Source: Bilabrum cf. latius
Lineage: Eukaryota
Assembly: GCA_965178125.1 (NCBI GenBank)
Contig: OZ237754.1
Coordinates: forward strand, 806,001-870,000
Length of the DNA: 64,000 nucleotides
Reading direction: 5' to 3'
Shown: piece after piece, positions 1 to 64,000 of the stretch
Layout of the letters: each line of letters starts with the position of its first letter
How positions within the stretch are numbered: the stretch's first letter is position 1
The notes under the pieces: model-generated
Seen by the model: only the letters and a program-made list of their open reading frames with translations
What the model was told of the DNA's origin: nothing
Database searches by the model: none
Translations under genes and position numbers: made by a program

Positions 1-1405
1 AGGGGTGGCAAAAGGCGCACCGCCGTCCTGGCCCTGGCCAAACTGGCGGGGCCCGCCAGCCCCGCGATCCCCGGAGCGGACACACGGCCCGATAGACGGA
101 CCGTCTGGCTGTGCGCCGGCCTGCGCATTACCCTGGTGTTGACCTGGAGGACTGTTCCCCGGGTGCCCGCGAGGAGCCACGCGTCCACGCACCCGGACCC
201 GGCCACGGCCTGGGCGGCGGCGCGCGCCGGGCTCGGCTGCTGCTGCGGGGACCGTGTGACGAGTGCGAGCTGGTCCGGAGGCGGCTGGGGGCACTTGCCC
301 GCCTGCAGGGCGGTCACAGCTTCCCACGGCAGCAGCGGAGCCTCCCCCGGGCTCGCAACCCAGTGGGGAGCCCTGCAGGTTGCAACCGGCACGTCCACGG
401 TGCGGCCCGGCCGCGCGACCGAAGGGATGGTCAGTGTGGTCGCGATCCGATCCGCGGTGCACCACGCCGCGAGCCGGCCCTCCACAGAGGCGGCCATGAC
501 CACGAGGCACGGCTGCAGCTGGGCGGGGCCCCTTGTTCCCTAGGGGAGCACCTGCGGAACTACCGCTGCACTAACGGCCACTGTGCGCGGCGCCAATCGG
601 AACCCGTCGTTGTCTGCTGGATCGACTTCGGGGGCAAGCTGGCAGCCCTTGGCAGTGGCCGAGGCAGGCCCCAGCCCCAGCATGAGCACCTTCGGCTGGG
701 GGGCGGACTGCTGCGCCTCGGGTCCTGCAGAAGGCGGCGGCATGTCTGTGTCTCGGTGGTGTGACGAGTGCGGCGGCTGCCACAGCATGAGGAGCGTGCC
801 GGCCGAGGCCCACCGCCAGCGGGCGGGGGGGCACGGGGTGTGAGCGATGCCGGGAGTGTCCGCCCGGCCGACGCACACATCAACATCTGCGACGAGGACG
901 ATGCGGCGCGATTAAAGTGCGTGAAAAATGTCGGTCAGTGCGAGGAGGTGGCACTGCCAGTGTCGTCGCGGGGAATCGCGTAAAAAAGTAGGTGCGCAGC
1001 AGCAATCTACGCCGAATCGCTGGGGCGGAGCTCGTTCATGGTCATCTGCACCTAAACCAAGTTCAACACGAGTTAGTGCATAGGTGCTTGTATTGCTCTC
1101 TTACGTTCTCTGGTTGCCACACGCAGCATGTGCTCCACGAGCAAGGGGTATCCGCGGTCCGTGCCATCCTCTAGTTGCAAAATAGTATCAGGGCCGGCTT
1201 CAGCCAAGCTCGACCCATTTTCAAGTCCCACCCTCTGCACCGAGCGGATAAACCCAGTTCCGCCTTGTGTCTTGTTTCGCTTAGCGGCACGTTCGTCCCC
1301 GCCTGGGGTACCGGCGGCCCGCTTACTCCCAATTACTGCGACTCCACCGCCGGGAGTCTTGGGCAGTTTATGAATACTTCCACCTGGAGCGGATATTTCA
1401 TCCAT
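1..1405 (-). CDS. 5' part of a spliced gene running off the window; possible beta-propeller (Nup133-like, speculative)
   Basis: ATG at 1405. Probable intron 1052-1104 (GTAAGA...CACTAAC...TTTAG); the second junction is unresolved. The frame from ~885 to 1 is open if TAG 540-542 is read as sense. RWASAGTLLMLW and VVMAASVEGRLAAW loosely resemble recalled Nup133 N-terminal strands. Confidence 0.45.
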
Positions 1406-1597
1406 GTCACAGTCCTCTTAGTGGGCTTGGCTGGCAATGTCTTCAAAGATAGCTCGCGTTGCGTGAAAACTCCAAAGCAATACTCAGAAGAGCGGTAGCG
1501 ACAACCGAGCAAACAATTGTATGCACGGGATTAAGATGTGCTGCGAGGGTCAATCCAGCCCTAGTTGCCGTTTACGCCGCACTCTGCTTTTTTACTA

Positions 1598-1620
1598 GGG
1601 TGAAGGTTCGTCAATCCGGA
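1598..1620 (+). repeat. Left terminal inverted repeat of the transposon
   Basis: Exact reverse complement of 4293-4315. A degenerate second copy (GGCTCGTCAAGTCGGA) follows at 1622-1637. Confidence 0.93.
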
Positions 1621-1863
1621 TGGCTCGTCAAGTCGGAATGGGCATTCAAACTGCAATTCGCGTGTAGCTCGCCGAATTTTCGCTAAGTGAGAACAGTAAT
1701 CACTCAGCAAAAAGTTCTTGAAACATTTAAACAAAAGGCTCGATGTGAGTGTATTGCAGATATCGTAAACGCGCGTGCGAGGTGGCGATGGAACCCCAAG
1801 TGGTTCCCAAGCGACGCCCAAAAAAGCGCCAAATTCGAGCTTTTTATCCTGGTTTTGAGCCAG

Positions 1864-3807
1864 ATGAATAGTCAATAGGATGCTCTATCCCATCTGAAAG
1901 CACGGGGTCTGGACATTCCATCTTCGACTGCCTCTGACTGGGTGAAGAAGGCAGCATCCGGACAAACGGTCGGTGCGAGAGGCGGTTCAAATCCGACATT
2001 GCCTAGGGAAGCAGAGGAATAGCTGGAGCTTCTCATTTCGGAGCTGAATAGATCAGGTGTTCATCCACATCCAGACTTCATCATTTCTTTCGCTAACTAT
2101 TGGCAAGACCTGTATATGAAGAAAGCGTTCCCCCGTCGCAAGTACGACAAGCTGTGTCGTGGCTGGCTCAAGGGATTCAAGAAGCGGTTCAAGATTTCTG
2201 CGCGGCGTAATGAGAACTACTAGCCAGAACGATTCCTAGTTAGGGCTAGCAGCGTCAGGGAGCTGTTCGCCATCCTGCGCCGCCTATTCAAGACGTTCAA
2301 GATCCAACTGCGCCGTCAAGTGGTCGTGTGCAATGAGTCCGGGTTCCAGTGCTGTGCTGCAGTTACAGCAGGTCTTGTCTCAACAGGGGCTCCATCATCT
2401 TCATCATCATCAAGCAGTAGCTCGGCTGCTTCCGGGGGAGCATCAAATCACCCCGAGGCTAGCGCTTGGAGGCCAACTGCCAAGGATTGCAACGCCGTCG
2501 AGTACGGAACGAGGCACACCACCACGCTGCTGTGTGCGTTGGATGCAGACGGCAAGCATGTGTGTAGCATCTACATCACAAAGGGCAAACACCGTGACGC
2601 CATTCCCCCTCCCACTGTGAGCGAGATCTCCAAGAAGGACCCGGAGGTGCTCCGGCATGGGCGCGACCTCCTCCGCTCGTCACCCAAGGCGTTCATCAAC
2701 AGCAAGCTCTGGCGCGACTTCATCGAGAAGTTGGTGTGGAATCTTGACAACCACTAGGGGCGGTAGGCAAACGAATGGTCCATCCTAATCACAGACGGAC
2801 ACTCGGCACATTACGACTTGGACACCATCGCCTGGGCCTTTGCCCACCGCCTCATCATTGTGACGATCCCCCCTCACTCCTCGGCAGAACTGCAGGTAGA
2901 GGACGTTTCGGTATTCAAGCCGCTCAAGACAGAGTTTCGAAAGCTGGTGACCACGTACACTACAAGCATTCCGGAATTCTACGCGAACAAGGACTGGACG
3001 CCAAGGGCAGTGGCGTACGCCCTCGCCAACATCTTGCGACCAAGTGGGGACAAGCCCGCCGGGCATGTCGTACACAGTGGCTTCGCGCACTGCGGCCTGT
3101 GGGACTACGATTCAGACACCCCTCTGCATGAAATTAACATCAAGAAGCGCATTGCGGAGTGTAAGGGCCGTGAAGAACACATGAAGCTGGGTCGGAAGAG
3201 GAAGCGCCAGCCGGCGCAGAGGCACTGGGAGGCACGCGAGGAGGAGAGCGGAAAAGTCCTAGAAGCCATGGATGGGTCAGACATCGGGAAGCAGACTTTG
3301 ATTGCGTCGTCGAGGGGAAAGAAACATGCGGGGGAGCAGTTCGAGAAGGTCAAGAACGATGCAGTGGAGCGAGCTACCAAACGCCTGCGATCCACCCAGC
3401 CGGGGGGCCGCCGAGACCCCCTGGAGCAGGAGCGGCAAGGGCGACCGCAGGACACGCGCGTGTACTGGAACTCAAAGCAGCTGGACACGTGGGCAAAGAC
3501 AAAGGTATCAGCTATGATTGCAGCTGCAGGTACTTCAATTGGAGCCACGCGATCCGTGCTTGCCTCAGTTGGCAAGGTCGTTGGGGCTCTCGGTACCTTT
3601 ATGGAGGTCACCAGTTCCAAGGATGCAACCGAGGAAGATAATGACAACGCTTTCATGGCTCTGACGGACCAAATAAGCATGATGGAGTCTGTCTCGGCGA
3701 CCGCATCATCTGCATGTGATGAACTGGAGAAGGCCCGGGCAGCTGCCAGCGAGCAGAAGCCACGCCCGCTGCAGATCGAAGATGAGGCCACAGGTGGAAG
3801 CTCCTGA
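1864..3807 (+). CDS. CENP-B-type HTH plus DDE_1 transposase (~647 aa with TAG=Gln; start uncertain)
   Basis: One frame with TAG at 1876, 2020, 2221, 2755 and 2764, ending TGA at 3805. Motifs: LPREAEE*LELLI, GWLKGFKKRF, VCNESGF, ILITDGHSAH and IPPHSSAELQVEDVSVFKPLK, with 35 residues between the last two Asp. Confidence 0.85.
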
Positions 3808-4292
3808 GCTCGCTATTTTTTCCAAGCAACTAGAAGCATGATTTAAAACTTTGTTTTATCCCAATCATGCGGTTCTCTTTGCCTATACCTAATTTTTCCG
3901 AGAGTAAATCGACAAGTTGCAGTTCGGCACAGCGGTCCGAATCGTGGCCGGACTCGCCATTCCGCGATGATATCCGTTCTTAGCATGCCAGCCATCGAAA
4001 GATATTTACCACACCATAAAGCTAACACTTCAGCAACAGCATGTGCGCGGCGGCAAAATACCGAACTCATTGCTCGTGGTGTAGTTGCAGCGTTCCGGAT
4101 TGATGAGCCACCGATTTTTGGGGTGCACAGAGCACTAACTTCACGTCAAGGTTACTAGTCACATACTCAAAGATTTCCGAAACAAGATGCACTTTTTGGA
4201 ACTTCAATCGGTGTAGAATTCATCTAGAAAAACGGAAACATATGACATGGTGTTCTCGGCCAGATTTCCCGCTCGAAGTTCGGCGGCTCCAG

Positions 4293-4315
4293 TCCGGATT
4301 GACGAACCTTCACCC
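4293..4315 (-). repeat. Right terminal inverted repeat of the transposon
   Basis: TCCGGATTGACGAACCTTCACCC followed by TA. A degenerate internal copy TCCGGATTGATGAGCC lies at 4094-4109. Confidence 0.93.
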
Positions 4316-4601
4316 TAAAGCGATGTGTGTGGGTGTGATGACGAGCACGGCAGCGGCACCGCTGTGCTGGTGACTGCATGCATGAAGCATTCTGGTGCAT
4401 TCAGCATCCAGGGCAGCGTGTTCCAATGGACAATCTAACTTCTACTCAACACATCAAGGCTGCCCTCCAGCCCCACCGACCGAAGCATACCAACAATCCC
4501 CCCAACCCCCCCCTCTCAGCTCCCTACGAAGCGACAAGATCCAACCCCCACCGCCACACTACATCAAATCCCCCTACACCCAAAAGGTAACCCTCTTTCC
4601 A

Positions 4602-5909
4602 TCACGTCCTCTGCCCCCCCTCCAGCTTGGCCAGCTCGGACCCCTCCCCCTCGCCCCCGCTGTCCTCCCGGGAGCCCCCGTTGCTGTCGTCACCCCGCGC
4701 AGCCACAGCCCCCGCACCCACGCTCGCACCGCTTTCCCCCCCGTCCCTCACCCCCGTGGCCTCCGCCAGTTTGGCCAGCCTCTGCCTCTCCTGCGATGCC
4801 TGGTACTGGACAAACCCGTAGTACACGCCCCCGCTGAACCCGATGAGCAGCCCCATGAAGTTGGTCGGCTCGAAGATGTAGTCGGAGAACAAAAACAGGG
4901 ACAGGATGAACGCGGCGAAGTTCTTCACCTGCCCGATCACGGACTGGGTGGTGGCCCCGTTCAAACTGGAGCTAAAGTACGTCGACAGGTTGAGGAAGAA
5001 CGCCAGAGTGGCCGAGAAGAAGAACACGACCATGAAGCCGGCATTGGCGAGGTTGGGGAATGACAGGGCCTTGCTCATCTCCCCCGTGCCCGCGCACACG
5101 ACGAACAGCACCGGCAGGGTCAGCACGGTGTTGTAGTACAGGATCGCGAACGTGGATAGGTTGCTCTGCTTCTTCACGTCGCCGATCGAGGTGGTGTACA
5201 GCGCCGTGAGGACGTTGGTCAGGATCACCAGCCCATACGAATACAGGTCAAAGGTGAGGTCCTTCCAGGCCGCGATACCCGCCCCCACCAGCATGATGGC
5301 CACCGCAAAGAGCACCTTCTGCGAGGGTGTCTTGCCGTAGTAGTAGTACTCCATGCCCATGGCGAAGCAGATGGTCGTGCGCCGCAGCGCGGTGAACATG
5401 GGCACGTTGACGCTCCCCAGCGCCATCAGCGAGACGACGACGTATCCCACGAAGGCCAGAGACAGGGGTGCGATCTTCTTGGCCAGCTCCCAGTTGAAGG
5501 AGGGCAGCGTGATGATGCCCATCTAAGAGACGACCGTGAGTGCCACGAGCGTGAACAGGCTCTGGCACACGGTGAGGAACATGGGGTACTGGAAATCGTA
5601 CGTGCTCATCACGGCCTTGTTGAAGAGCGTGATGGTCATGCTGCTCAGGCCGTACATGAGAGCCCAGAACATGCCGCTGCCCATCGCGCCCCCTGCGCCG
5701 CCGCCGGAGGACGACTTGGAGGAATTTGCTGATTTGGATCCCTTGCCACCGCTGCCATTCTATCCAGCTGGTCCCACTACCGGCACGCCGCCCGACGAGC
5801 TGGGAGGAGCTTCCGAAGACATGTCTGCCTCAGGCGTTGATCTCGTGCCCTGTTCCAAAGTCTCTGCCGCGCGAGTCCCGTAACCGCGCTGGCGAGATTC
5901 TCCCTGCAT
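4602..5909 (-). CDS. Nucleotide-sugar transporter, SLC35D/TPT family (~435 aa)
   Basis: ATG 5909 to TGA 4602 in one frame with 2 TAGs (5760 and 5523). ITLFNKAVMSTYDFQYPMFLTVCQ lies upstream of the TAG; VPMFTALRR and TTQSVIGQVKN lie downstream. Multiple hydrophobic helices. Confidence 0.88.
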
Positions 5910-6361
5910 TAAGCAGAGAAGCGAATAGACTGCTGCACAAACACGGCAGCAACGAGCAGGTACAGCTGCTCAGACTTCCCTGCGACGGCAAAAACGGACA
6001 GAACCACAGTTGGAAATAGTTTCCTGAGGCACTAAGAGACAGTAAACTAGCACATGAGTACGAAAATGTCATGGCTCTGCTGTGGCATAGCCAAGCACGG
6101 CAGATGGGGTGCGCAAGATTCTTCCGGTTCGGAAGTACAGTTGCGATGCGATGCTCAAGGAGCAATCGTGTGTTGCTCCCGATCCTTCGCTCTCGATTCA
6201 TTGTTTTGATCGTTACATCTGATGTGAATAATTTACTCACTGTGCTGTTGGGCTGTCCTTGTGGAGTTTTTGGCCAACGATCTCGTCGCGGCCAGGTTGC
6301 GTGCGATTTCACGGCGGCCGAAAATATTGCACCTGCGGCAACTCGACGCATAGACCTTGCT

Positions 6362-9300
6362 ATGAAGAGCGGCCGGCTAGATCTGCTCGATCTGAATGAA
6401 GGGGAGCATTACTTTGAGGAGTATGACGGGGAGTACTAGTACGTCTCCCGAACAGATGCTGAGGGCACCGTGCGACGAGGAGCGGATGCAGTAGCCGCGA
6501 GTGTCACGGAGCATGCGTACGAACCAGGAACGTTTCACGTAGCCTCCAAAGCCATTTACTTTGAACCCGAGTCTGCATACCTTCCAATCCTCCGATTCCG
6601 GTTCGCGGACATGCCAAGACCCCCTGCATCGGTCCTGCGGCTAAGCCAAGGCCCGTAGGCGGCGTTGGGCGAGCGCAAGTCGGCGCAGGCGGGATCCACT
6701 CTATTGTTTCAGGCGACACAAGCCACTCGGATCAAGCAAGACGGTCGCATTGGACCTCACTAGACTGTGGTGCTCGATAGCGGCCCGGACGCCGCGGGCT
6801 CGAGCCTGGGCAAGGACATTGCCGACGAGCCCGCGCTGGTGGAAGGGAGGGGAGTGGCCATCCTGAGGGCCGGGCACGCCGGACTCGATACCGACAAAGC
6901 AGCAAGACTAGAGGACCTGCTCCTGCTCTGCTTCCGCGCCGCGCACTGCCGTGCGCTGCACCGGCTGCAGGGTGCCTCTGGCCGGCCGCCCACGGAAGAC
7001 GAGTTGCTGGGTCCTCTGGTCCGGAGGCGGTGGGAGCTGCCTCCCCCTGGGTATGCGGGGGCAACGGGAGGTGGTGCGGCGGGTGCATCGCACGGTGGTG
7101 CTATCCTCGCGCCCGGTGAGCCCGGCGGGCCGTCATCCTTGTCATCTTCATCTTCAGGGATGGGCGCCCCGACCCTGTCGGCGGGGGAGTCCATGCTGCC
7201 CCAGGGCCCCTGGCCCGTGCTGCGGGCGCGTCCACTGGTGGACCAGGACTGCCGCTTGTTCCTCAGCGACAGGGCGCTGTACCTGAGGCCGTCCGCCGTG
7301 AACTGCCCCAGGGCGGGGGTCCCCGACCCGGTGCAGTCCATTGCGGTGGCGGCGGCGGCGGGAGAGACGGCGCTCCTTGGACCGGTGCCCCAGCTGGGTG
7401 CACTGCACGGTAGTGAAACCGGCGGGAGCGGGGCCCCGCTGGGCGCACCCTTGGGCGTACCGGGGTCGATCGGCACACCTGCAGGGTCGGGAAACCGGAA
7501 CCGTCACCGCGACCTCCGTGCTAGGCTGGATGACCCGGGTGCATCGCACGATGCCGTAAGGGCGGGGGAGCTGGCCGCGTTGGAGGGCGAGCGGGCGTCT
7601 TCTGGTGGTGCGGGCTCGGGGGCTATGGAAGCGGGGTCGGGGGGTGCGGGGGGCCAGTGGGGGGGGGCGAAGCTCCGTGTGGGGTGGGAGAACGTTCGCG
7701 TGCTTCGGCGGCGCACGCGCATGCGGAGGGACGTGGGTCTAGAGCTGGAGCTGCTGCCCAGCTCCAGGGGCGGCGCGGGATCCGGTGGGATGGGCACGGG
7801 CATGGGCATGGGCATGGTTGAAGGGACAGGTATGGAGCCGGGGGTAGGGTCTTTTGCAGCCACGGCCACGGGCACGGGCACGGGGACAGGGACCGGTGGT
7901 GGCAGTGGGTCGAACGGGCAAGGGGGAAGGCGCGGCCGGGAGGGGCTGAAGGAGATCGGCGGCGCCGCGGGAGGTTCCGCAGGGGAGTCCTCGTCACTGT
8001 CCAAAGGGGGGCGGCGGCGCCGTGGCAGCAGCCGCTACTCGGATTCGGAATCGGACGAGCCGACGGCCGCGGCACGGGCCGAGTAGCAGCTCCTGCGGAA
8101 CCCATGGCTCCTGCAGCCGCGCGGCGCCGCCGTCTTGCTCGTGTTCCGCAGCCGTGGGGAGCGGGAGCGCGCCTTGGCAGCGATCGCGGGGCAGTGCCCT
8201 GGCGTCTTGGTCGCGCCGGCGCGCCGGTCCGTGGCGGAGGCCCGCTGGCTCCGGGCCGCCCAGGGGGCCTGGCGGCAGGGTGCCCTGGGCACGTTCGAGT
8301 ACCTCGCGGTGCTCAACTCCGCGGCGGGTCGGTCGAGGTGCGACCTGCAGCAGTACCCCGTGTTCCCCTGGGTCATCCGGGACTACGAGAGCTACGAGCT
8401 GGACCTGGAGGCCGAGGGAGCCGCGTGGCTGCGTGACCTGGCGGTGCCCATCGGGGCCATGAACGAGGCGAGGCTGGGGAAGTTTCGGGAGAAGCTGGAG
8501 AGCCTGCGGGTGGACGGGGGTGTGACGAGTGAGGGGCCGGGGCACGGCGAGCAGCCGGGAGGAAGGAAGGAAGGCGCCGGGCCTGCCGGTCCTAGGGGCA
8601 GCCCCGCGCGGCCGGGCCCAGGGAACAAGAGTGGCAAGCCGCACCAGGAGCCCCTGCACAAGCACGGGCTCTACCGCTCGCACTACAGCAACCAGTCCTA
8701 CGTGATTTTCTACCTGGCCCGCGTAATGCCCGAGCACATGCTGCGGCTGCAGTCGGGCAGCTTCGACGCGCCCGACCGAATGTTCCGCGGGGTTCGCCAG
8801 GCCTGGGAGTCGGTGACGGGCACCAACGGGATGGACGTCAAGGAGCTGGTGCCCGAGTTCTACGAGCCTGGCACGGCGGGCCGGTTCCTCGTGAACTCCA
8901 GGGGGATCCGCTTCGGCGAGCTGTCGGACGGGAGCACCGTGGGGGACGCCGAGCTGCCCCCCTGGGCGCTCGACGCCTCTGATTTCGTGCTGCAGTGCCG
9001 CAGGGCGCTGGAGCACCCGGCGTGCTGCAGTACGATGCACCGATGGATCGACCTGGTGTTCGGGAGCCGGCAACGGGGCAGGGCCGCCGACCTCGCCGAC
9101 AACCTGTTCGAGCCGGACAGCTACGAGGGCGCCGTGGACCTGGACCGGATTTCTGATCCGATCCGCAGGGAACAAGCCAGGGCAGTGCTCGCGGAGCTGG
9201 GCCAGACGCCCTCTCAGCTGTTCCTCAGCGACCACCCCCATTGGGTGGGCCCCCAGATCGGGGGGGTCATAGGATAGCCGGATGCATCCGGTGCAGCGGG

Positions 9301-12300
9301 GGCGGGCGGGGATCAGGCGCTGGATGAGGCAGTGGCGGTGAATCGGAGCAGTGACGTCACTGCGGGCGGGCCGTCTAGCGGTGCAGGCGCCTCGGACGGT
9401 GCAGGCGATGCACCCGCGCCGCGGGCGGCGGACTCATTCCGAGCTGCATCCAATGCATATGATGCAACCGCTACGGCCGGCAGCACCGACCAGCGCACCG
9501 ACGGTCGCGAAGATGAAGATACGAAGGCTACCGAGGAACACATCATCGCCTGGAAGGAAGCACAGTCCCAGTCGTGGTCCGCCTCCAAGGCCGTGGAGGA
9601 TGCAGCCAGGTCGATCAAGCGGTCCGCACCGCAGCACGTGCTGCGGTTCCATCGACTCTGGGCCAGAAAGGTGCCCGACCCAGACGAGGAGATACGGGTG
9701 GACGAGGGTGTGACGAGTGAGGATGCCTCTCGAGAAGAGGCCTCGTCCTCTCCCGTGCCGATGGCCCAGACGGGTGGGATGGCAGGGGAAGGCGAGGGCC
9801 CTGGTGCTGGTGCTGGTGCTGGTGCTGGAGCAGGTGCGTCGGCGGGGTCTGGTTCCGGGCCCGACTCGCCTCGGCTGCTCCGGGGCTCCTCTGTGGGCAC
9901 CAGCGTCCGAAGCGGGTCTCCTGCGGTGTCCCAGGGAACAGCAAGGGAGGGAGAGGGGAGGCGGAAGGGGGGTGCCGCGTCCCCCAGCAAGCGGGGGTCA
10001 GCCAGGGGCCGTGACCCCGCAGAGGGGGTGCTCCGCAGGGACATCGAGGAGTCGGCAGGGGCGTGCGACGTGGTGGCGGCAGGGCCGGGGACGTGGCCGG
10101 GCACGGTGCGTCTGCACGGCGGTCCGGTGGAGGCGGTTTGCGCCTCGGAGCTGCAGCCGAGCCGGTGCGTTGTGACTCTGGGTGCTGACGGGCTGCACAG
10201 GCGGTGTGGGGTGGCCACTGCGGAACCTCTTGCTCTCGCCGCGGCGCCGTTCCGGGGGTATGATGAGGCTCTCATGCCTTCGGGGTCATCATCTTCATCT
10301 TCCAAAAAAGCTGCTGCGGGCAAGGGCAGAGACACAGCTGGAAGTGCTGCAATGCCGAAGCCTCTCGCGACCAAGACAGCTTCACAAGGCAAAGGCACAG
10401 ACAAAGGCGCCATCAGTACCATGGCCAGCTACCCCACTGCGGGGGCACCCCTCGGGGGTCAGGACTTCCTGCTGGCGGGGTCGAGCCGGGGGTCGGTGTG
10501 CCTCGTGCGGCTGGCGCGGGGCTCGCCTGTCAGCAGAGTGCAGATTGGGGCACACAAAGGCCGCGTGCTGTCGTGCGCTGCTCCCAGGACTGCGCTCCTG
10601 CGGCCCTCCGGAGAAGAGGACCAAGAGGCCCTGGCGGCTGGGTCGGGGTCGGGCAGGGGCGGCGGGAGAGGGGGCAAGGGAGCCGGTGAGCGTCTTCGGC
10701 GGATGTCGTCACTGAAGGCGGTTCGAAGGGCTGCCGAAGAAGCCGGAGCGAACGTTCTCTGCACGGCGGGGGCAGACGGGGACGTGTGTCTGTTCGCGGT
10801 GGGGGCCGCTGGCCAGGGGGGTGCGCCTGCCGCCGGGGAGCAGGAAGAGGAACTGGCCGGTGGGGTAGGTGCATTGCACGGGGGTGCAGGGGATGCATCG
10901 CTGCCGTCGCTGCATCTGCTTTGCAGGATAGAGGCCAGGGCAGTTCTGGCCGCGCTGGATCAGGTCGAGCAGGGGCAAGGGCAAGGGCAAGGACAAGGGC
11001 AAGGGCAAGGGCAATGGCAAGGGGGAGGGAAGGGACGGAGGGCGGGCGATTGGCCCCCCGCCGTGCCTGCTGGTCTCTCCTCAATCAGTGGAGCTGGACT
11101 TGAAGACGATGACCAAGAGGATGGCGGTGCCAGCGGTATCAAAGGCAAAGGGGTGGACCTATCCGCACTGCTGGGACCCACCACCTCCTCCTCCTCCGCG
11201 GCAAGCCCGCTCCGACCTCGCTAGTCCGGGGAGAAATCCAACGGCAGTAAGAAAGACGGCGTAAAGAAGAAGCTGGAGCTCGGCTCGGAATCGAATTCCA
11301 AGCGATCGAGGCCGAGTGCAACGCCAGTGCCAGTGCCCGCAACCGCCGTGGCCTTGTCCCAGGCAGCTGACCGGTTGGCCGTGGGCTTCGGGGACGGGTC
11401 TGTTCTGACCGTGCGTCTGCGTGCGGTGGGAAGCAAGGCAGGGGGAAAGAAGGGCAAAGGGAAGGGCAAGGGCAGCGGCAGCAGCACCCCAAGGACAGGT
11501 GCAGCCGGTGCAGGTGAGCTCAAGGCCTTCCGAGCTAGGAGTGGACGGGACCTGTGCGGCCTGGCGGACGGGATGCAGGTCGCGTGGGCTGCGGACGCAG
11601 CCAGGGAACAAGGGTCTGGAACAGCGCAGGTGCCGGTGGGTAGACCGGAGCTTGGTGGCCGCTCGGGGATCGTCTGGATGCAATGGGTGGAGCTGGAGAC
11701 ACAAGAAGGGGGCAGCACAGGGGAGGACGACGATGGTGGAGACGGGGGTGAGCGGGGTGCGGGTCTGCTGGACGCGGATGACAGCGTCTGGGACGGGTAC
11801 GGGGACGGGGGTGAGATGCCTGCGGGAGTAGGGGGTTCTGAGGTGGGTGCAGGGGGCAAGGGGGGACATGAAGAGGAGGAGGATGGGGGTGGTGGGACCT
11901 AGGGAACAAGCGGCGAGGGAGCCAAGGCGCGGCTGCTTGCTCTCTCCTCTAGCGGGGAGCTGGCTGTATATGACGCTGACGCTGTGTGCTTGGCCGTGTT
12001 CGCGCTGGGCCACCGGTGCACCTGCGCAGCGCTGGCACCGGGCGGGAGGGTGCTGCTCGCGGGCGGGGAACAAGGATCGCTGGCGGCGTACGATGCGTTT
12101 GCGGCCGTGCGGGCCGCGAATGGCGGCAGTCGTGGAGTGGGTCGCGATGGTTCGGCGCCGGGGACGACTGCGGCATTGGTTGCGCCGCCCGTGCTGCCGC
12201 TCGAGGTGCTGAGCCGAGCGCTGCGTCCGGGCCGCGAAGGTGTGACGAGTGCTTCTAATGGTGTGACGAGTGTTATTGATTATGGGGAGTTCAAAGAGGA

Positions 12301-12835: not shown

Positions 12836-13147
12836 GTTGCCTAGTAGGGCAGCTCCGGTTCCGTTCCTGTGGTGAGATGCCGCGACCACAAAAGCAGAAG
12901 GCGTTTGCCAAGACTATGTAGCAAAACCCTGCTTAGCTTGACTTCCACATGTTAATTGATGATGAATTCCGGTCGAAAGTGCACCGAGGAGATGTAAAAC
13001 AAGAAGAACCGTGCTATGCGCCTCAATGCACTGCACTTTCTGCCTGGCCACACCATGTTAGGGCACTTTGATTAATCGCATCAACAGTCGTACCGGGTAC
13101 CCTCTTCCGTAGATATGCCTGAAGGGCGCGCTCAATGGAGGCACCCA

Positions 13148-25844: not shown

Positions 25845-25912
<68 letters not shown>

Positions 25913-53100: not shown

Positions 53101-53224
53101 CTAAACCTGCGAACGCCAGCAGGCATACTACACCCAGCGCACCGGCAACAAAAAGCGCCCTTATATTTCTTCGGGGTCGTTTCCACTTGAATGAGGCCCG
53201 CAAGGGCGCAATTTCCCCTCTCAT
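50132..53224 (-). CDS. K+-dependent Na+/Ca2+ exchanger (NCKX/SLC24 family); introns 52733-52944 and 52354-52642
   Basis: EFPDD...LHAIGTVYMFYGLAI|ICDEYFV, DVAGATLMA|AGGSAPEL, GTIVGSATFNI, LAAGTSIPD and GDMAVSSSVGSNVFD. TAG at 53060, 53027 and 51407; TGA stop. Confidence 0.92.
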
Positions 53225-53346
53225 GGCTCCGTGAGGCGCCTGCGCGCAGGGTCTCACCCGGAAGACCCGACTCGACAAAGGTGCACGCTATCTAGGAAGT
53301 CTGGATTGCTGAGGCGTGCTCGCGCTTCCTGCCGAGCAGCACAATC

Positions 53347-54894
53347 ATGGACAAAAGAGAGGGTTTTGTACTTGAAGAGGTGCATAGAGACGACCCGTAC
53401 CATGCGGAGCATTCTAGTGCCGCGGCTGCGGGTTTAGCCGGAGAATCGATGCTAGATTTTGACTCTGCTGGGAATGCCAGCTTACAGGGCGAACTGGCCC
53501 CGCAAAGCGTGTACAAAGTGCATACTCCGACGGAATCGGCTCATAGTGGGATATCTGGATCGCGGTATGACGTCTTGATGCCCAAACCGCTTCGAGGAAG
53601 CGCGGCAGCTTTGGGCTCAACAGTGCAGCACTACAAAGTCGGGGCCTCCTATGGGCGGCTAGGCGACCCCAACCGCGACTAGAATCGCTTAATAAAAACC
53701 GAAGATGCTGCGGATGCGCTCCAGGCCGTGATTGGTCCATCGGCGGCGAGCGCGGGCGGGCCAGTACCAAGCGCTCCTGGTTCTAGTAGCGGCGCAGTGA
53801 TTGAGCTCCATGCCAACCGTGATCGTGGCCGCGCGACGGATGGCAGTAACGGTGGCTAGTTGAGCAAAGATGATACTCCACACGTCCGATGGGCGGATCA
53901 AGCGACGCAGGGCGAGACTTCCGGCGCGAGAGGCGGCGTGGTTGTCGAAAAGCAAGCGGGCGGGGCAGGTGCTTCGAGCCGCAACGGAGCCGAGCAGCAG
54001 TCGGAGCACGAATCGAAGGACTCGGAGCCGGAATTTGAGCTGAGTGGGGAGCACGCCGACGTGCTCGGGGTTGTCTTTCAGTTCCTTGACGAGGACTGCG
54101 ACGGCGAGCTGAGCGACGACCAGCTGCGGTACGCTGTGACGGCCATGGGCATCCCGCCCACGTGGCCCTTCCTGCAGGAAATAAAGAGCCACTGCGTAGA
54201 GGGACAGGGAGTCAGCTATCCGCTGCTAAAGAGCGCCATAGAAAATCGCACGGAGTAGCAGCCGATCAACTGCGCGAGGCTCGACGCGCTCTTTTCCGGC
54301 TTTGCCTCGCCGGCGTGCGGCCCGGGCGAGGTGCCCACGCACCTGCTCAGGTACCTCCTGAGCGGAGTGCACACGGCGTACGGGACGCAGCTGAGTGATG
54401 GCGAGACGGACCAGCTGCTGGATCACCTGCGCATTCGTGAGGGGGAGCGGGTGCACGCAGTGGACTTTGTGCGCGCGCTCAGCAGCGGTTTCCTCAAGAT
54501 GGTGCCCGGGAGCGAGCAGGACGTTGCCCCGCCGCCCCCGTCCAGCAGGGAACAACGGTCCGACATGGCCCGCCGCAGGATGGAGCGGGTGCAGCAGGCA
54601 GCGGAGGAGAAGGAGGCGATTTAGGAGAAAGGGGCCCGGGAGGCAGAGGAGCAGGCGAGAAGGGGGGCGATGCCTGGAGGAAGCGCAGCGGAGGAACAAG
54701 ATGAAGGAGAAGCGAGGGGAGTGGCATCAACGGCACTGCTGGAGGCACAGATGCCGCGCCCATCGGACATGGTGGAGCGCCGCGGGACGAGCACCGGAGC
54801 GAGCGCCCGAGCAAGTGCTAGGGTGCCGCACACGATTGACCTTCAGGCGCAGGCACAGCTGCGGGACGGCAGCACATTTGTAACGCGGGAATGA
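53347..54894 (+). CDS. EF-hand-containing protein (~515 aa)
   Basis: One frame with TAG at 53680, 53857, 54256 and 54622, ending TGA. EF loop FQFLDEDCDGELSDDQL, followed by degenerate calmodulin-like helices. Confidence 0.7.
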
Positions 54895-55278: not shown

Positions 55279-55947
55279 TCACTCCAGCTCCACCTCGGCT
55301 CCAATCTCCTTGAGCTTGTTCATGATTTCCTCCGCCTCCTCCTTCTTCATGCCCTTGGTCACGGGGGCCGGCGCGCTCTCCACCAGCGCCTTGGCCTCCT
55401 TGAGTCCCAAACCGGAAATAGCCCGGACCTCCTTGATCACCTTGATCTTGGACTTGGCGTCGAATCCCTTGAGCACCACGTCAAAGGCGGTCTTCTCCTC
55501 CACGGGAGCCGCTTCCTCAGCCGCCGCCCCGCCGCCGCCGCCTCCCGCGGGCGCGGCCATGGCCATCCCGCCGATGGCGCTCATGGGCACGTACAGGTCC
55601 GCCGGGTCGTCTGGCTTGCCAAGCTTCTCGCGAAGCACATCCATGAGATCCACGGCCTGCAACATGTTCAGTCGCAGGACTCGGTCGGCCAATTCCAGTA
55701 CCTCGGGGTCGTACGCCCGGTCCCCGTCGCCTTCGCCCACGAGGCTCAGGTCCACGCCATGCTCCTCCACAATCTCGTTGACTACCTTCTTCAATGGCTT
55801 CACGGGGGGCGTTTTGTCATCTGCCGCAACCTCGGAGGCTTCTTCAGCCCTAGCAATCGCGCAGACATGCAACGGGCGGTACGCAGCGCTAGAGGGCTGC
55901 GCCCATCGCAATCCGCCCAGGCTGGCCGTCCTGACTTGCGCTGGCAC
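55279..55947 (-). CDS. MRPL12: Organellar (probably mitochondrial) ribosomal protein L7/L12; true start lies upstream and is unresolved
   Basis: [44 protein letters not shown]...[11 protein letters not shown] stop. The frame continues upstream through a TAG into an Arg/Ser-rich, transit-like region. Confidence 0.92.
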
Positions 55948-56544
55948 TGCCAGCTGTGATAATCCCCGCGCTCCCTATGTGCAGAATCGACGAACCGTAC
56001 TGCGATGGCACGAATGTAGGGAACATATTGTGAATTTCACAGGCTACGGCGGCCACGACGGCAGAACGTCATAGTTGCAGAATCGAAAAGCAACAGGCGA
56101 TCTCCACAAGCCCATTTGTTGGATAAGACACCAATCCACGCATGCAAACTCTCCATCTCACCTGGATAAGCGCTGCATTTTAAGTTGTGGCAGCAAGAGT
56201 AGTGCACTAGGTGGAGGCAACGATCGGGAGGCCCAGTTCGCTAGCTAAACCAGAATAAGCACGGTACCTCAATTGCGAGGCCCGCATTGGCCTCTGGCCT
56301 CATCGTGCACTCGAAGTTCACGTGTGCACATTTCAATACCAAAATGTGTAAATTGACATTGGTAACTGCGATATGATTCCACCCAGGGTATGCTCGCACC
56401 TTCCGCGAGGCCCTCGTGAGCCTCCCTCTCGTATTCTTGATTGCCTGGTGTCACAGTGGTGTGTCTTGATTGCTGGTGTGTCTGTGCGGCAAGCCCTTGT
56501 GCCGGAGCACTACAGAGGCCCCCGCCTTGTCCGAGCCCGCGCCC

Positions 56545-56832: not shown

Positions 56833-59800
56833 TCACGCCTCTCCTGCAGCGCCGCGCTCCGCCGCCCGCCGGACCAGCGCCCTGCCCTCTGCCCTTGCGA
56901 CCTCCGCGGGCAAGTGCTCCGTGCTCGCACTCAACGGGATGCTCACCGTGGCCGACCCCAGGCGCCCGTCCTCGCTCGTCACACGCACCACGATAGGCGC
57001 CGTGGCCGAAGGGCTGGCGGCTTCCGACTCGGTCGCGATGCGGGAGGGCGCCGCGCCTGCGGAACCGCCCCGGGCTCCGGTTCCGCTCCCGTGCACCTCC
57101 AGCAGCCGGCGCCGCGCATCCGGCGGGCTGGCGGCGTCCAGCGTGGATCTGATAAAGCACCGCAGCAGGCCGTAGTACGTTGTTCCCTGGCTGCTCCAGG
57201 CCGCCCCCTGGTCCGCGGGGGACCCCGAGTGCGTGGCGAGGACCGTCCCGTGCCCCGAGAGCACCTCGAACCGCAGTGCAGTGCCACTCACGGGGGACAG
57301 GGCCCCGTTCTCGTCCACGATCTCGGCCCGCAGCATGGCCACGTCCTGACCGTCTGCTACCAGCGCGCTGCCTGTGCCGGTCGTGGGGCTGGGCGCGTCC
57401 ACCCTCAGCCTCAGACCCGCTGGGCTTCCCGGGGACAGCCGAGTCGCGGTTGCAACCACCCTGCCCTCGGAGTCCCTGGCCACCGCGGTGAGGTTGCCCG
57501 CCTCGTATGGGATAGAGTCGAAGGTCGCAGTGCCGAAGTAGGCCATGGGCTGGGCCTCCCCGCCCTTGGGCTGCTTGCCGTTGACGAGCAGTGAGACAGA
57601 GTGCGCGTTGGTGTAAGCGTGGATGACCCGGGTGGGCTTGCCCTTGGACTGCCCCTGCGCCGGCTCCCACGTCTCCGGGATGGAGACCTCGTATTTCAAT
57701 TCCGGGTCCACGGGTGGCCGTCCCGCGTCTGCGGTGCCGTTGATGGCCGCGAGCCACCATGCCCTTACCCAGGCGGCTGACTCCTTGGCGAACCCCGCCA
57801 CGTCAGCGATGACCCCCCTAGCCTTGGAGGTCTGCGGCCATCCTCTCGACTCGCCAAGGTAGCTGAAGCTGCGGGACGGTGCGGTGCGGTGCAGTACAGT
57901 GCAGTGCACGTAGGGATAAATCATGGCCGTACGCAGGCAAGGGGGCGAAGGAGATCTGGCGCGATGCATCGCATGTAACGAGGAACGACAGGGAGTGAGG
58001 TTGCAAGCTACATGGACTGGACACGGAACAGGCGCGGGCAGCAGGACGGTCAGCAAATCACCCCCCCCCCCGCCTTCCCTTCCTTTCTTTTTCTTGCTCT
58101 CTCTCTCACCCGCTCCACACGAAGGTGCCGCTCATGAAAGGCCTCCCGTCGCTCTCGTTCACCTGAGTGGCAGTGCACTGCGATATCTCGTCGTTGTAGA
58201 ATACACCGGTGGTGTTGTCCCCCGTGTACGTGCCCTGACAGTCCACACGGCACCCCTGCTTGCATCCGCTCGGTCTTGGGTTAGGACACGCGTCGTAGTC
58301 CACGCCCCTCTGGGATAGGCATGAGCAGCACTCGGTGGCCAGCGTAGGCTTGCCGGGGTAGTGCGCGTGGAAATCGTCAAACGTGCTCCCCGACTTGTGC
58401 GAAAACCCCTGCACGTCCAGGAATGCCGTGGAGAGGTTGGTCCCGTGGTGGTTCTGCGTGACTGGCCGCGAGGGGTCAACGGACAGGATGGCCTCCCGGA
58501 AGTACTGCGCGCTCGACTCGTTGTTGCAGCCCACCTCGCTGCGGTGACAAAAAGAGATGGGAAAAAGGGATCGATGTGTGCAAAACCACACACCGGCCGC
58601 GCGATGGAGCGGCCTCGTGCGGCACGAGGGCGCGCTCGGAGGATAGCATGGCATAGATGCATTGGAGCGCGCTGGCTCTCTACCCTGCCGCGGGCCTGCC
58701 CATCGAAGGTTCTCTCACTTGCAAAGGCTCCACAGAAACACAGATGCCCTGTTCCGGTCCCTCACCACCATGTCCCGGATGTCCTGGAGCTCCTGCGCCA
58801 CGGTTTCTTTGGTGGTGCCCCCCTGCTGTTGGTGACCCCCGTAGTCCCGGTTTTCGTCCATGACCACCACTCCCAGGGCGTCGGTGACGTCCAGGCGAGC
58901 CTGCACGGGCGGGTTGTGAGCCATCCTCCATGCGTTCCCGCCCACGGACCTCAGGGCTTGGGCCCTGAACAAGTTCACCCGGTCGGGGACGGCAGACCCC
59001 ACCCCCCCGAAGTTGCTGTGGTCGCAGAAGCCCCTCAGCTTCACGTGGCGCCCGTTCACGAAGAGTCCCTAGTCTGCCGTGAAGTCCAGGCGCCGGAACC
59101 CTATGCTCGAGTTTGTTGCGTCCTGCAGCTGGCCGTTAAGCTCCACTGCGGTCTCCAGCGTGTACAGCGCGGGGACCTGCACGGTCCAGGGAACAATGGA
59201 AGGCACGCTCGCGCGCGCCTCCAGCACGGCGGTGCCCCCGCCGGGACTCGGAGCCGGAACTCCCCCACCGCTGGAGCGGAAGCTCGCCACCAGCCTTCCT
59301 TCCGAGTCGAAGAGCCTGTGCGCGCTCGTGGCTGTGCCTGTGCCGGTGCCACGGCCCTGCCCTTGGGCAGCTGCTCCGGCGGCAGTAGCAGAATCCTCGT
59401 CGTTACGCACCGTCACCTGCACCGTCAAGTCGGCGCTGGCCGGGGCTCGCGGCGCCGCGCGATCCGGGTCCGCAGCGGAACCGCCCAGCAGGCTGATGTT
59501 CTGGGAGCGGGCAAAGACCCCCTCGCCCAGGACCCCAAGGTGCATCGCCTTGCGGGCCCGACGCAGGCTGTAATGCCGGAACAGCCCGCCGCCCTCCCGC
59601 CACCACCCGTCTCCGTACGACGCATCCACGTACACGGCCAGCACGTTCTCTTGCGCGGCGCCGGTTCCGTAGTGCAGCCCGGTGACGTTGTCGATGCGGA
59701 GGGCAAATGACGTGTACCCCTGCATGTGGGTCGGTCCCAGCTGCTAGCCGTTGAGCCAGGCGGTGGTCTCGTGGAAGGAGCCCTCGAAGAAGACCCACAG

Positions 59801-60458
59801 CTCCGACTGGCCCCCGTCCTGCCAATCCTGGGGCAGATTGAAGTGCTTCCGGTACCAGCCCACCCCCCGGGGGAGGAAGGCCTGCGATGGGGAGTTCTCC
59901 TCGGAGAAGTTCTGAGCCAGGAGCATGTCGTGAGGCGCGTCCACGATCTGCCAGCTGGAGTCGTCGAAGCCCGGCTGCGCGGCTGGAGGCGGGCCGGGCG
60001 GCGGCGGTGGAATCGTCCCGGCGTAGCGATCAGCCGGGACAGGTCCGGGAGATGCCGTCGGCTTCGTCCAGCACTGCGCGCAAAATTAAGAAGGAATACA
60101 TATGGGGTACGATCCCGGGTGAACCGATGCCGAACGGGGAATAAGGGTGGGCTACCATGCCGCGCCTTGCGCAGCGAGACCAACTGCAACTCACTTGTAG
60201 GGATGTCGGATTCCAGTCCCAAGCGACACAGGACGAATCTTCAGCGCACATTGAGCAGCATGTAGCAGGTTGTGATACATTAGGGTGCATGTTCCCTCCT
60301 GTCCCGTAGTTTACGCCCTTTTTGATCTCCCCGCATTGCCTGCGTGGATCGGGCACTGGACCCAGGTGGTGCTTCCAGCCAAAGTCAAAGTTAACGCTCT
60401 CGCGCAAGTTTTGTGCTAAGGTGTTTGTACTTAACACCCCGAGGACAAACAATATCAT
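56833..60458 (-). CDS. Secreted glycoside hydrolase family 2 (beta-galactosidase-like) with a PAN/apple insert, multi-exon
   Basis: NFDFGWK, GWYRKHF, FEGS...WLNG*QLG (TAG 59744), DGWWREGGGLFR, FTAD*GLFVNG (TAG 59069), WRMAHNPP, RDRNRASVFLWSLCNE, ATECCS and FVWSGFSYLGE. At least 3 GT-AG introns; TGA stop. Confidence 0.9.
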
Positions 60459-61348
60459 GCCTGCTCGTGTCTTTATCAGAGTGCAAACTGCAGTGGCGTC
60501 GCGTCTGGTCGCGTCAAAACGAATAGTGCACGCAACCACCCCGGCCGGACACATATCGATTGTTGAGTGCCCGTTGCACCCTGAAATTGCTGGGGGTATG
60601 CGGCTGTATCGAGCGCGTCTACCAAGGCAGCATCGGGCGGTGAGTGGCGCAGCATGGCACGTTGAAGTGAGCATGTACTGAATCCTCCACGAGACACCCT
60701 GACCCTTCAACCAAACGGGTATATGAGGCGTGCTGGTTTACGACCGTCGCGGTGCACCACGTCGGACCACGGATATCGGCTGGGGTGTAATTCAACGCAG
60801 GGCAGGATAGGATAGGCACGCGCTGCGAAGAAGCATCCGCCAGGATAGATCTACTGTCTGCCTGCTCCCACACACGGACGGCGGTCGATAGCCTTGGTAG
60901 ACGAGCGCAGTACGGTATCGAATCATCCATTTGGGGAAAGGCCGGGGTGGTGTTGAGTGACAGCGCGGCCGGTTTCATGGGGGCGGGCGAGAGTCCGTCT
61001 CTCCCAGACTTCGCTGGCCCGGGGGGAACCTTCACTGGCCAAAGTCGGTGGACACTGGAGAATGCGGCTTCACGTTCACATTCAGTTGTATTTTGGTCCA
61101 GACTTTTGTGTAGCTAGTAGAGTCCAAGCAGCTTGAGGATTATCTTCCTACATTGACCATTCGATTCTAGCGACCAAGTACTAGATCTACTTGTGAGCGA
61201 TGTGCCCAGTCCACCAATAGCACTGGAACGAGGACGTATCCCCGCCAGATGCTGGCATTCCCGATGCAAGTAGCTACCAAGCTCTTTCAGCGCGGTATAA
61301 ATGTGATTGACTGTTTTTTTTCTTCGCAGCTTGCTCTTTCTGCCGAAG

Positions 61349-64000
61349 ATGAGCGCTGCAGCCGGAGGCGGAGATGTCAGGGCTGCGTACTCTACTTTCG
61401 GTCTACAGCCTGGAGCCGGGGAAGCACAAATCAGCAGAGCTTTCCGCAAGCTCGCCTTTAAATATCACCCGGATAAAGCGGGTGTAAGCAGTAGTGCTCG
61501 CATGCAACGGCTGAGCGCAATGAAGCAGCGGCTTCTCGATGCAGAGACACGGCTCGCAAGGGGCGAAGACCTGGAGCAAGATACGGGGAGTGGCGACTCT
61601 GAAGATGATGATGACGACGATATCTGGATTCATGAAGAGTCGGGGACAAGGCTTAAGCTCTCAGTGGGGGAAACGCCCGGGGCCACGCTGATGCGACAGA
61701 TTCGACAGATGTGGGCAAAAGCAGATTCTATCAGTGCTGGGAAGCTTCGCGCGCTTTAGAGCATGCAGACAGAAGGCGGTAGACAGTTTTAGATCCTGCT
61801 ACGCGATTGGCATACCGAGGCTAAAAAATTCATCCGGACAGGACCCTGGAACGCCACCCATCCGGCCGTGCGACCTCGATGCGACGACTCAGAGCCTGCA
61901 GCATCTCTCATCATGCCTGCGCTGGTGGCCTTAAGCGAAACGATCCCACTGGGAGACTTCATTGCCACCCTACGGCCGAGCATGTGCGAAGACCGGCCCA
62001 AGGAGGGCGATCCTTCGCGCGACGCCGAGGCGTGGGAGGACGATGCGCTGGCTGTGCTGGACGCCATGGAGGCCGACGGGGAGCCGGAGTCGAGGGACTG
62101 GGACAAGTGGGCTAGGTCTGCGCAGCGGATGGAGCGGCTGCTCGAGTCACTATCACACGCGCGCAACATCCGCGGCGATCAATGCAAGACGTGTGAGTGG
62201 CAGCACCGGCATACGGTGGCCAGAGCCCTTCTACTGCGAGGCGATACGGAGCGGTCCGCATTGCTGGTGGCCAAAGATGTGCAGCACACACTTGCGGCTC
62301 GCAAGCTGGTCGTTCGATCACTGCTTCGTTTGCTGCGGGACATCGCGCAGGAAGCCTTCGATGCCATGCATCCTGACGCCAGTCCCCTGGTGGAATGCTT
62401 GGTGCGTGTTGGTGCAGCGGAGCCGCCACGCCCCACGCCGCCAATGGCGGATGCCCCTGCATCTGGTGGGGACAGATCTTCTGGTGCTCCTGATGGGGAC
62501 AGAGCTGCTGGTGCCTCTAGTGGGGACAGCACTGCTGGTGGGGCGGCTGCACCAGGGCCCGCCTCAGGGGCAGGAGCGGACCCAACTCCGCCCTCTGCTT
62601 CGACCGACCAATCGACTGCACACATGAAACCGCATGATTTAGCCGTGGAGTAGGCCAAGCAAGTAGCCACCTGTCTCCGGGGCTTGGTGGTTGGGCATGC
62701 ACTTGGTGATGTCGGGGCACTGGCTCTTCGAGCTGCCGACGCAATCCTGAAATATGTGCGAGAGTCGGCGAGAGCAAAGCAGCGGCAGGAACTCAAGCTG
62801 CTGTTCGACCGTGGACTGGGACGGGAGGATCACGCGGCCATGGGGAAGGGCATCTGCATGTTGGCAACACCTGCCGATCACGCAGTGCTACAAGAGGCAC
62901 TCTTGCCTTACCTGCGCCGGGACGTGTATAATAGCCCTGCCATCTCCGCGACCAGACGAGCAGCCATCGACGTGGGCAGGGTGTCATGCGGCCTAGCTGG
63001 CCAGGAGTGGAGGATCGGGGCGCGCCCTAAAGCAGCAGCTGGAAAGGCAGCTGCTCCACAGGCTACGGCTGCCACAATCAGCGGGGCTGACGCCATGACC
63101 TTGCTCGGAGGCGCCATGCTACGCGTAGGACCTTTTCAGGATGCCAGGCCGGCGCTGGAACCAGCTGTTCATCTGCTGTGGGGCAAGGTGCTAGCTGCTT
63201 CTGGAGGCATGGATCAGGCGCTTCTGGATCAGGATTGGGGTGCCATCACGCAGCAGCTGACCCCTAGAGGTATGCTTTCCAGTTGGGACAAGGCAATGGA
63301 GAAAATGGCACGCATGGACTCCGTTGGAACTGACCATCCTGCTGACCTCACACAAGCTGGAGAGTGCAACAGCTAGCTCCTGCCAACCTGTGACGAGCTA
63401 GTGCCACCACTCGACACCAAAGCCAACCAGATGGGACTGCCCAAGCTCTCCTTCAAAGGAATCAGTATAAGGCAGGTGCGCCGAATCGAAAAGGTCATCC
63501 TGAGGCGCGTGAGCACTTCTGTTGGAGAGAGGACTGCTGCCGACGGTGGCGCTGCTACTGGTGGATGCAGTGCTGATGCTAGCAAGAGCAAGCCATCCGG
63601 CGGCACTAGGTCTAAAGCAAAAGCCGATGCCAGCACTTCACGCTGCTCTGCGTGCAGAGAGGAGTGGGGTAACCTTGAGGTGGCCTAGGCGCTGCTGGAC
63701 CTGACGATGGCCGCTAACAGCTTGGACGAGGTGGTCGGGGCTTACGTGAATGCAATGCTGTGGCTGTTACGGGAGCTATGTATCGCGTCTCAGGACGAGA
63801 GCTATGACCCGAGACGTAGGACTGGCTCGAGTGGGAGACCGAGTGGTGACGATGCCCCAGGACCGGTGGGTGCTGCCGGTAGTGCCGAGGGTAGCGCTGC
63901 ATCAGTCAAAGGGGCTCAAGCTCCAGGAAGCGATGGTGAATCTGGAGCAGCAGATGCTTCCGAACTCGCTGCTTCAGAAGGCTCCGATGAGGGCTGGTTC
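61349..64000 (+). CDS. DnaJ-domain protein, 3' end outside the window
   Basis: AYSTFGL...ISRAFRKLAFKYHPDK. The frame is open to the window end through TAG at 61757, 61790, 62651, 63374 and 63686. Confidence 0.8.

Follow-up and report, generated by a model that had tools for sequence, protein, structure and literature searches.

UAG as a sense codon, probably for glutamine, in nuclear genes of a GC-rich eukaryote

The stretch analysed here, referred to throughout as the window, comprises 64,000 nucleotides of contig OZ237754.1 (Bilabrum cf. latius, assembly GCA_965178125.1, positions 806,001 to 870,000 of the forward strand) and carries about 19 genes on both strands at a G+C content of 63.9%. 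The subject of this report is the meaning of the codon TAG in these genes, for which a first-pass annotation, made from the letters alone, had proposed glutamine, with TGA as the working stop. Conserved genes of either strand confirm TAG as a sense codon, and NCBI translation table 15 (TAG as glutamine, TAA and TGA as stops) is the code that fits the window.

Genes of the window and their in-frame TAG codons

The frames described in this paragraph contain TAG and close at TGA. A pogo-like DNA transposon lies at 1596..4317 on the plus strand between perfect 25-nt terminal inverted repeats (1596-1620 and 4293-4317, 100% complementary) and is apparently intact. Its transposase frame (1864-3807, plus strand) includes the motif EAEE*L and holds five TAGs, of which codons 298 and 301 are spanned by the DDE_1 domain (E=1.9e-07); with five TAGs and no other stop in that frame, the transposon is consistent with a resident element whose expression follows the code described here. 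A nucleotide-sugar transporter of the TPT family (4602..5822, minus strand) has two TAGs and matches both the Pfam family (E=5.8e-13) and GDP-mannose transporter structures (E=2.6e-21). The FAN-like BEACH protein (6071..12835, plus strand, 2254 codons) contains eight TAGs, including TAG-231 at 6761-6763, with matches to Beach (E=8.1e-81) and PH_FAN (E=3.8e-09). A protein kinase with an N-terminal B56-like region (15880..20061, minus strand; Pkinase E=2.2e-44, B56 E=3.2e-08) has two TAGs, and a PRMT9/PRMT7-like methyltransferase (23438..27520, plus strand; solved PRMT9 E=3.4e-10) has eleven, four of them in the run TAG GCC TAG ACC TAG GTC TAG at 24935-24955. A leucine-rich-repeat protein of the LRR_9 type (28040..28873, minus strand) carries one TAG, and a 1108-codon frame that matched no family and is SET-like by eye only (29327..32653, plus strand) carries five. 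The Q-rich low-complexity protein (33684..38225, minus strand) has 19, eight of which fall within CAG/CAA runs. BBS1, a subunit of the ciliary BBSome (38895..41210, plus strand; E=2.5e-42), includes three TAGs. The main exon of a CDK7-like kinase (41370..42602, minus strand; Pkinase E=5.2e-59) bears two TAGs in the kinase domain, an arginyl-tRNA-protein transferase (43114..49779, plus strand; ATE_N at residues 10-62, ATE_C at 1501-1593) bears four, and a sodium/calcium exchanger (50132..52612, minus strand; Na_Ca_ex E=3.2e-47) has two in its stop-to-stop frame, one of them near the 5' edge. A 567-codon frame that matched no family (53191..54894, plus strand) adds five.

Two further genes contain TAG. 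A glycoside hydrolase of family 2 (GH2; 56833..60085, minus strand) has at least two exons, one stretch without TAG (56833-58131) and one with two TAGs (58715-60085). A DnaJ-domain protein (61349..64000, plus strand; DnaJ E=1.7e-08) contains five and runs past the end of the window.

With the standard stops, a single stop-to-stop frame reaches 1000 codons or more; there are six when TAG is freed (2391, 2234, 1541, 1429, 1400 and 1108 codons), one when TAA is freed and two when TGA is freed. In 11 long frames, totalling 13,366 codons, TAG occurs 68 times in frame and TAA and TGA not at all; the remaining two frames across this DNA contain 154 TAG, 62 TAA and 376 TGA. The frequency of TAG is therefore similar in and off frame, and TGA and TAA are depleted from the frame. 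Adding four shorter genes brings the in-frame total to 76 TAG, 0 TAA and 0 TGA (15 frames, about 15,900 codons), close to the first-pass estimate of about 75 TAGs in about 17 genes. This usage amounts to about 5 per 1000 codons, or roughly one glutamine codon in eight.

The frames opened by TAG contain the Pfam domains Beach with PH_FAN, Pkinase with B56, BBS1, ATE_N with ATE_C, Na_Ca_ex, DnaJ and DDE_1, together with TPT, LRR_9, Ribosomal_L12, three GH2 domains and a second kinase. Solved structures were matched for PRMT9, GH2 beta-galactosidases, the GDP-mannose transporter and bL12. The TAG-bearing genes lie on both strands, and the Pfam or solved-structure matches flank TAGs on both sides. 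When Pfam ranges were compared by eye with TAG positions, about 11 TAGs fell within or bordering DDE_1, PH_FAN, Pkinase, GH2_N, GH2_C, TPT, LRR_9 and GAE_BBS1. TAGs are spread along whole frames, including the region near the terminal TGA, as at codon 1331 of 1360 in the PRMT gene. Gene calling with the standard code fragments the majority of the organism's long genes.

Under the standard code the TAGs would have to reflect errors of assembly, lesions in pseudogenes, introns within the frame or RNA editing to CAG. Real introns do occur at the locus, and not all genes are continuous. The sulfatase-like gene (12998..15880, minus strand; named from its translation) has five GT..AG introns and a 611-codon spliced frame that holds no TAG and ends at TGA, and the CDK7-like gene has one intron upstream of its main exon. 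The first-pass claim that no frameshifts are needed accordingly holds for the long frames, with these two genes requiring splicing. Lesions or introns would, however, add TGA, TAA and frame shifts, none of which appear in the approximately 15,900 codons.

Other sequencing runs bear on the same question. Four runs, X4 to X7, were compared with 5701-25700 through their contigs, and the stretch is present in runs from four studies. Contigs of X5, X6 and X7 skip 13363-13590, 14238-14397, 14928-15060, 15218-15305 and 15465-15570, which places joints at 13362/13591, 14237/14398, 14927/15061, 15217/15306 and 15464/15571 in the sulfatase-like gene; X4 contigs read through and show none of these joints. 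On the minus strand the skipped segments measure 88-228 nt, start with GTGAG or GTAAG and end with AG. A 524-codon frame that matched no Pfam family (20999..22573, plus strand, no TAG, ending at TGA) is followed at 22799, 226 nt downstream, by an A-run found in one X5 contig. From the joints and this poly(A) end we infer that X5 to X7 contain spliced RNA of this organism. What speaks against this is that none of the runs with this stretch is listed as RNA, that the run kinds assigned to X5-X7 are an automatic guess, which makes X5 'probably DNA', and that unspliced contigs could be DNA.

Among the 18 TAG sites in 5701-25700, 15 are covered by listed pieces of X5-X7, none of which differs from the window in any letter or has a joint at a TAG; the other three lie outside the listed pieces and say nothing either way. 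An X5 contig extends over 23432-25700 of the PRMT gene with 0 differences and no joint, so that the four-TAG run sits in an unjoined contig. Independent runs, from three studies in all, agree with the window at these TAGs with 0 differences, and none of the TAGs coincides with a listed joint. Contigs lose rare variants, and editing of a minority of transcripts would escape such a comparison. Assembly errors, introns and editing are unlikely as the source of the TAGs, and we give the standard code as a whole next to no chance. TAG is retained in contigs of runs that contain spliced copies of a neighbouring gene as well.

The residue read at UAG

The residue is, with high probability, glutamine; the evidence for it is of moderate strength and comes chiefly from a near-orthologue and from poly-Q runs, with distant homologues contributing little. 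The BEACH protein was searched exhaustively with HMMER, the query being its first 1200 residues. The gene call P0249 (393 aa), from a close relative, matches residues 212-566 of the BEACH protein at 89% identity and places Q opposite TAG-231, reading RIGPHQTVVLDSG against RIGPH-TAG-TVVLDSG in the window. This near-orthologue provides the strongest single result for glutamine.

The Q-rich gene offers a second line of evidence. Eight of its TAGs (codons 306, 310, 311, 318, 320, 501, 504 and 696) lie in CAG/CAA runs, for example CAA CAG TAG CAA CAG CAG TAG TAG CAA CAG CAG. The longest poly-Q run is interrupted by TAG five times and by the synonymous CAA three times, besides one Pro codon and two Leu codons. 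Among the neighbours of TAG only Q is strongly enriched (20 observed vs 5.5 expected, p=7e-07); S shows no enrichment.

Profiles were built from 120 CDK7-like, 120 GH2 and 150 BEACH homologues, and emissions were read for the six TAG sites located in match columns. The summed log-odds in nats are 2.68 for Q, 1.35 for K, 1.35 for H and 0.03 for S; in a control, the true residue ranked first in 84% of draws of six known-codon sites. The near-orthologue, the poly-Q runs and the first rank of Q in the profiles, by a small margin, all agree with the first-pass assignment of TAG to glutamine. The near-orthologue, the poly-Q runs and the TAGs retained in X5-X7 contigs are firmer ground than that annotation itself had. 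Two individual alignments given there fared less evenly. For the PRMT9 site (YRIAI*RG against YNAAIQKA), Q is present in three solved PRMT9 sequences, but metagenomic homologues have R, H or Y or a gap. For the CDK site (KCIAL*MM, set against CDK2), the gene proved to be of the CDK7 type, and the column of this first TAG has Q in 12 but M in 20 of 37 homologues, with Q in six of the seven best-scoring.

Several observations weigh against glutamine. The assignment leans on a single site in a near-orthologue and on a low-complexity setting, and without the Q-rich gene the enrichment of Q neighbours drops to 7 vs 3.9 expected (p=0.1). Most TAGs occupy variable positions, at which distant homologues show mixed residues, and for this reason the margin of Q over K and H in the profiles is small (about 1.3 nats). 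The second CDK7 TAG faces a near-invariant Pro, present in nearly all of the 37 homologues. P stands opposite BEACH TAG-1069 in P0250 (64% identical), S opposite GH2 TAG-339 in all five alignments printed, four of which represent nearly the same protein, V or H opposite GH2 TAG-114, and S and I opposite a transporter TAG. A metagenome scan with the PRMT protein returned 14 loci, none of them close (the best at 36% identity); at the PRMT TAG column ten of these loci have R, one has Y and two have a gap, and the closest has H. Among distant homologues, the columns for GH2, LRR, the transporter and the N-terminus of FAN vary and are uninformative, and three of five FAN TAGs fall in insert states.

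TAG could be a sense codon for another residue: Ser as in Scotinosphaera, Leu as in the rhizarian exLh, Lys, His or Glu. The S at GH2 TAG-339, the S in one of the two sequences facing the transporter TAG, the second rank of K and H in the profile sum and the position of several TAGs beside Ser runs are consistent with this. The Q at TAG-231 in P0249 and the behaviour of TAG in pure CAG/CAA runs, where it resembles synonymous CAA, count in the other direction, and Ser is neither enriched beside TAG nor favoured by its profile score. We consider a residue other than glutamine improbable. The accessible parts of PMC11687900 and PMC5304391 describe UAG as Ser in Scotinosphaera and as Leu in exLh and in metagenome-assembled genomes of phyllopharyngeans. 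The code of the window resembles these in the reassignment of UAG without UAA; the residue differs, glutamine being favoured here.

Gene ends and the roles of UGA and UAA

TGA closes all 17 genes that end inside the window (16 unspliced ends and the spliced frame of the sulfatase-like gene), which agrees with the first-pass statement that all of about 17 traceable genes end in TGA. In this small sample, no gene ends at TAG and none at TAA. UGA is the working terminator. The true end of BBS1 is uncertain, its closing TGA being part of a GTGAGT-like string within a tandem repeat of 52 bp. An extended stop signal around TGA was considered and set aside, the base that follows TGA being variable.

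A code in which UAG is ambiguous, read as sense within genes and as a stop near their 3' ends in the style of Condylostoma or karyorelict ciliates, finds no support in the window, where the sample amounts to 17 gene ends. None of these ends is a TAG, and TAG occurs at all positions of the frames, including the last stretch of the PRMT frame before its TGA. This arrangement is very improbable; the window differs from the ambiguous codes of Condylostoma, karyorelicts and Blastocrithidia in that the reassigned TAG ends none of its genes, within the limits of that small sample.

The status of UAA is less direct. TAA makes up 14% of off-frame TAA plus TGA (62/438), and the exclusive use of TGA at gene ends therefore weighs little by itself; by our own arithmetic, the chance of finding no TAA among 17 ends from local composition is about 0.08. 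The in-frame counts are more informative. The CAA share of CAA plus CAG is 21.4% in the 11 long frames (107/393 for CAA/CAG), and the shares of AAA (97/308 for AAA/AAG), GAA and TAT are similar. Were TAA synonymous with TAG, about 20 TAA would be expected beside the 76 TAG; none is observed (P about 1e-8, own arithmetic). TAA is present off frame, with 62 copies in two frames, and is thus kept out of the coding frame like a stop. UAA is no sense codon here, and clearly not a common one. Most likely it is still a stop, seldom used owing to the G+C bias. Against this stands the observation that TAA closes none of the 17 genes, its role as a stop being deduced. The first-pass statement that UAA has not been reassigned consequently holds through its absence from frames, and TAA as a gene end is never observed.

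A code of the NCBI table 6 type, with UAA and UAG both glutamine and TAA too rare at high G+C to show in 64 kb, draws on the same lack of TAA terminators, which leaves the window without a positive sign that TAA stops translation. The absence of TAA beside 76 TAG, despite the CAA/CAG and AAA/AAG ratios given above, argues against it, as does the removal of TAA from the frame much in the manner of TGA; we assign this code only a slight chance. In the accessible part of PMC11687900, UAR is read as glutamine (table 6) in many ciliates, hexamitin diplomonads, Streblomastix, some Ulvophyceae and Amoeboaphelidium. The window shares with table 6 codes the use of UAG for glutamine and of UGA as terminator, and differs in that TAA, a sense codon there, does not appear in its frames.

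Host, known codes and minor features of the locus

Composition and gene content point to a GC-rich eukaryote with a cilium and an organellar translation system. The BBS1 gene implies a cilium. A nuclear gene for the organellar ribosomal protein bL12 (55279..56157, minus strand, ending at TGA; Ribosomal_L12 E=1.4e-26) encodes an N-terminal extension, which implies an organelle with its own ribosomes; residues 53-200 of the protein match mitochondrial bL12m structures. An organelle with its own translation sets the host apart from fornicates such as Iotanema, and 64% G+C, introns of 88-228 nt and the gene layout are unlike a ciliate macronuclear genome. Gene content and genome style argue against both a fornicate and a ciliate, and on the same basis the independent reassignment suggested in the first-pass annotation is plausible.

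The named relatives returned by homology searches are all distant. The best named CDK7 matches, 38-49% identical, come from Ochromonadaceae, Platyproteum, Symbiodinium, fungi and green algae. The best GH2 match is a EukProt transcript (54%), followed by Balamuthia (48%) and sponges (40-41%). A word-indexed search with BBS1 returned no relatives, low-complexity words having probably crowded them out. The gene calls P0249 and P0250 are short, and each has both of its ends within the BEACH gene although its contig has room for more (2254 and 4908 bases), which hints that in-frame TAG may occur in these relatives too. It is conceivable, though on balance doubtful, that UAG to Gln arose independently in a lineage of aerobic GC-rich flagellates that reference collections lack and is shared with the P0249/P0250 relatives, and that G+C pressure took the code a step further than in the cases described so far, leaving UGA in practice the sole terminator and UAA nearly unused both as sense and as stop.

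Taken as a whole, the window is very likely nuclear DNA in which UAG is an ordinary, fairly rare glutamine codon, UGA ends genes and UAA is most likely a little-used stop. Changes of the nuclear code are rare, and those known nearly always affect UAA and UAG as a pair. The code of the window is a further case of a known type, in which UAG alone is assigned to glutamine (NCBI table 15 type). Table 15 itself is listed for Blepharisma nuclei and some phages; TAG as Q is shared with it, and the TAA stop of the table is not observed here. A literature search of incomplete coverage found no report of a GC-rich eukaryote, neither ciliate nor fornicate, with UAG as glutamine. As far as the accessible parts of PMC11687900 and PMC5304391 go, UAG-only reassignment to glutamine is confined to just a few lineages.

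One of these is Iotanema spirale (Metamonada: Fornicata), in which, according to the accessible part of PMC5304391, UAG is glutamine and UAA is kept as a stop, with a tRNA-Gln(CUA) and the eRF1 change T32G in the GTS motif proposed as the mechanism. The window resembles Iotanema in that only UAG is reassigned, to glutamine, and UAA has no new meaning. The two differ in that UAA is the primary terminator of Iotanema (PMC5304391), whereas every gene end here is UGA and none is UAA. Furthermore, Iotanema is an anaerobic fornicate, and the host of the window has an organellar bL12 gene and 64% G+C. The accessible part of PMC11687900 gives UAG, but not UAA, as glutamine in the phyllopharyngean ciliates Hartmannula sinica and Trochilia petrani and in Protocruzia tuzeti, with which the window shares UAG as glutamine without UAA and its wide use across genes. 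It differs from those ciliates in its 64% G+C, its approximately 19 genes on both strands in 64 kb and its GT..AG introns of 88-228 nt.

By analogy with Iotanema (PMC5304391, in its accessible part), UAG would be read by a tRNA-Gln with anticodon CUA, one base from CUG, which would read UAG but not UAA. An altered N-domain of eRF1 would, by the same analogy, prevent release at UAG and keep it at UGA and probably at UAA. No tRNA gene was found in the window by ARAGORN and no RNA family by Rfam, and eRF1 is not among its genes. The host is GC-rich, has ordinary genes with introns and apparently has public runs of both genome and spliced transcripts, which would make it tractable for work on the UAG-reading tRNA and on changes in eRF1. 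The case could also show whether G+C pressure, under which UAG is preferred to UAA and UGA as a stop, helps uncouple UAA from UAG.

A short string, GTGTGACGAGT, is repeated across the locus, with 31 copies in the window at no more than one mismatch vs 0.67 expected and an extended consensus of gGTGTGACGAGTG[A/C]G. Copies lie, for example, at 8520, 9708, 12240, 12261, 16969, 16987, 18112, 34047 and 35436, and further ones at 35583, 39793, 44837, 45380 and 48123/48174. They are mostly on the sense strand of genes, are translated as G-V-T-S or C-D-E and often open lineage-specific insertions in conserved domains, including the BEACH domain and the kinase activation segment. GTGTGACGAGT was not found in 398 fetched homologues. 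A role as a 5' splice site or mark of an in-frame intron was considered and rejected, given that real introns start with GTGAG or GTAAG and that X5 and X7 contigs read through the copies without joints.

Several genes have individual peculiarities. The gene at 15880-20061 combines a B56-like region, typical of the PP2A regulatory subunit family, and a kinase domain in one frame, and the kinase has an insertion of about 80 residues in its activation segment. Around the 524-codon frame, 20954-22299 shows many alternative letters in contigs of all four compared runs, which may be paralogues or alleles. The Q-rich gene overlaps at its 3' end with a 57-bp tandem repeat (33261-33718, eight copies, 98% matching). 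In the arginyl-tRNA-protein transferase, about 1400 mostly low-complexity codons separate ATE_N and ATE_C, and this insert includes a 49-copy (GGTGCA) repeat that encodes Gly-Ala. Hexanucleotide microsatellites are common in the window (9801-9837, 10969-11034, 32219-32269, 36225-36305, 45502-45795 and 56546-56592), and those inside genes encode dipeptide repeats such as GA, GQ, GH and GT.

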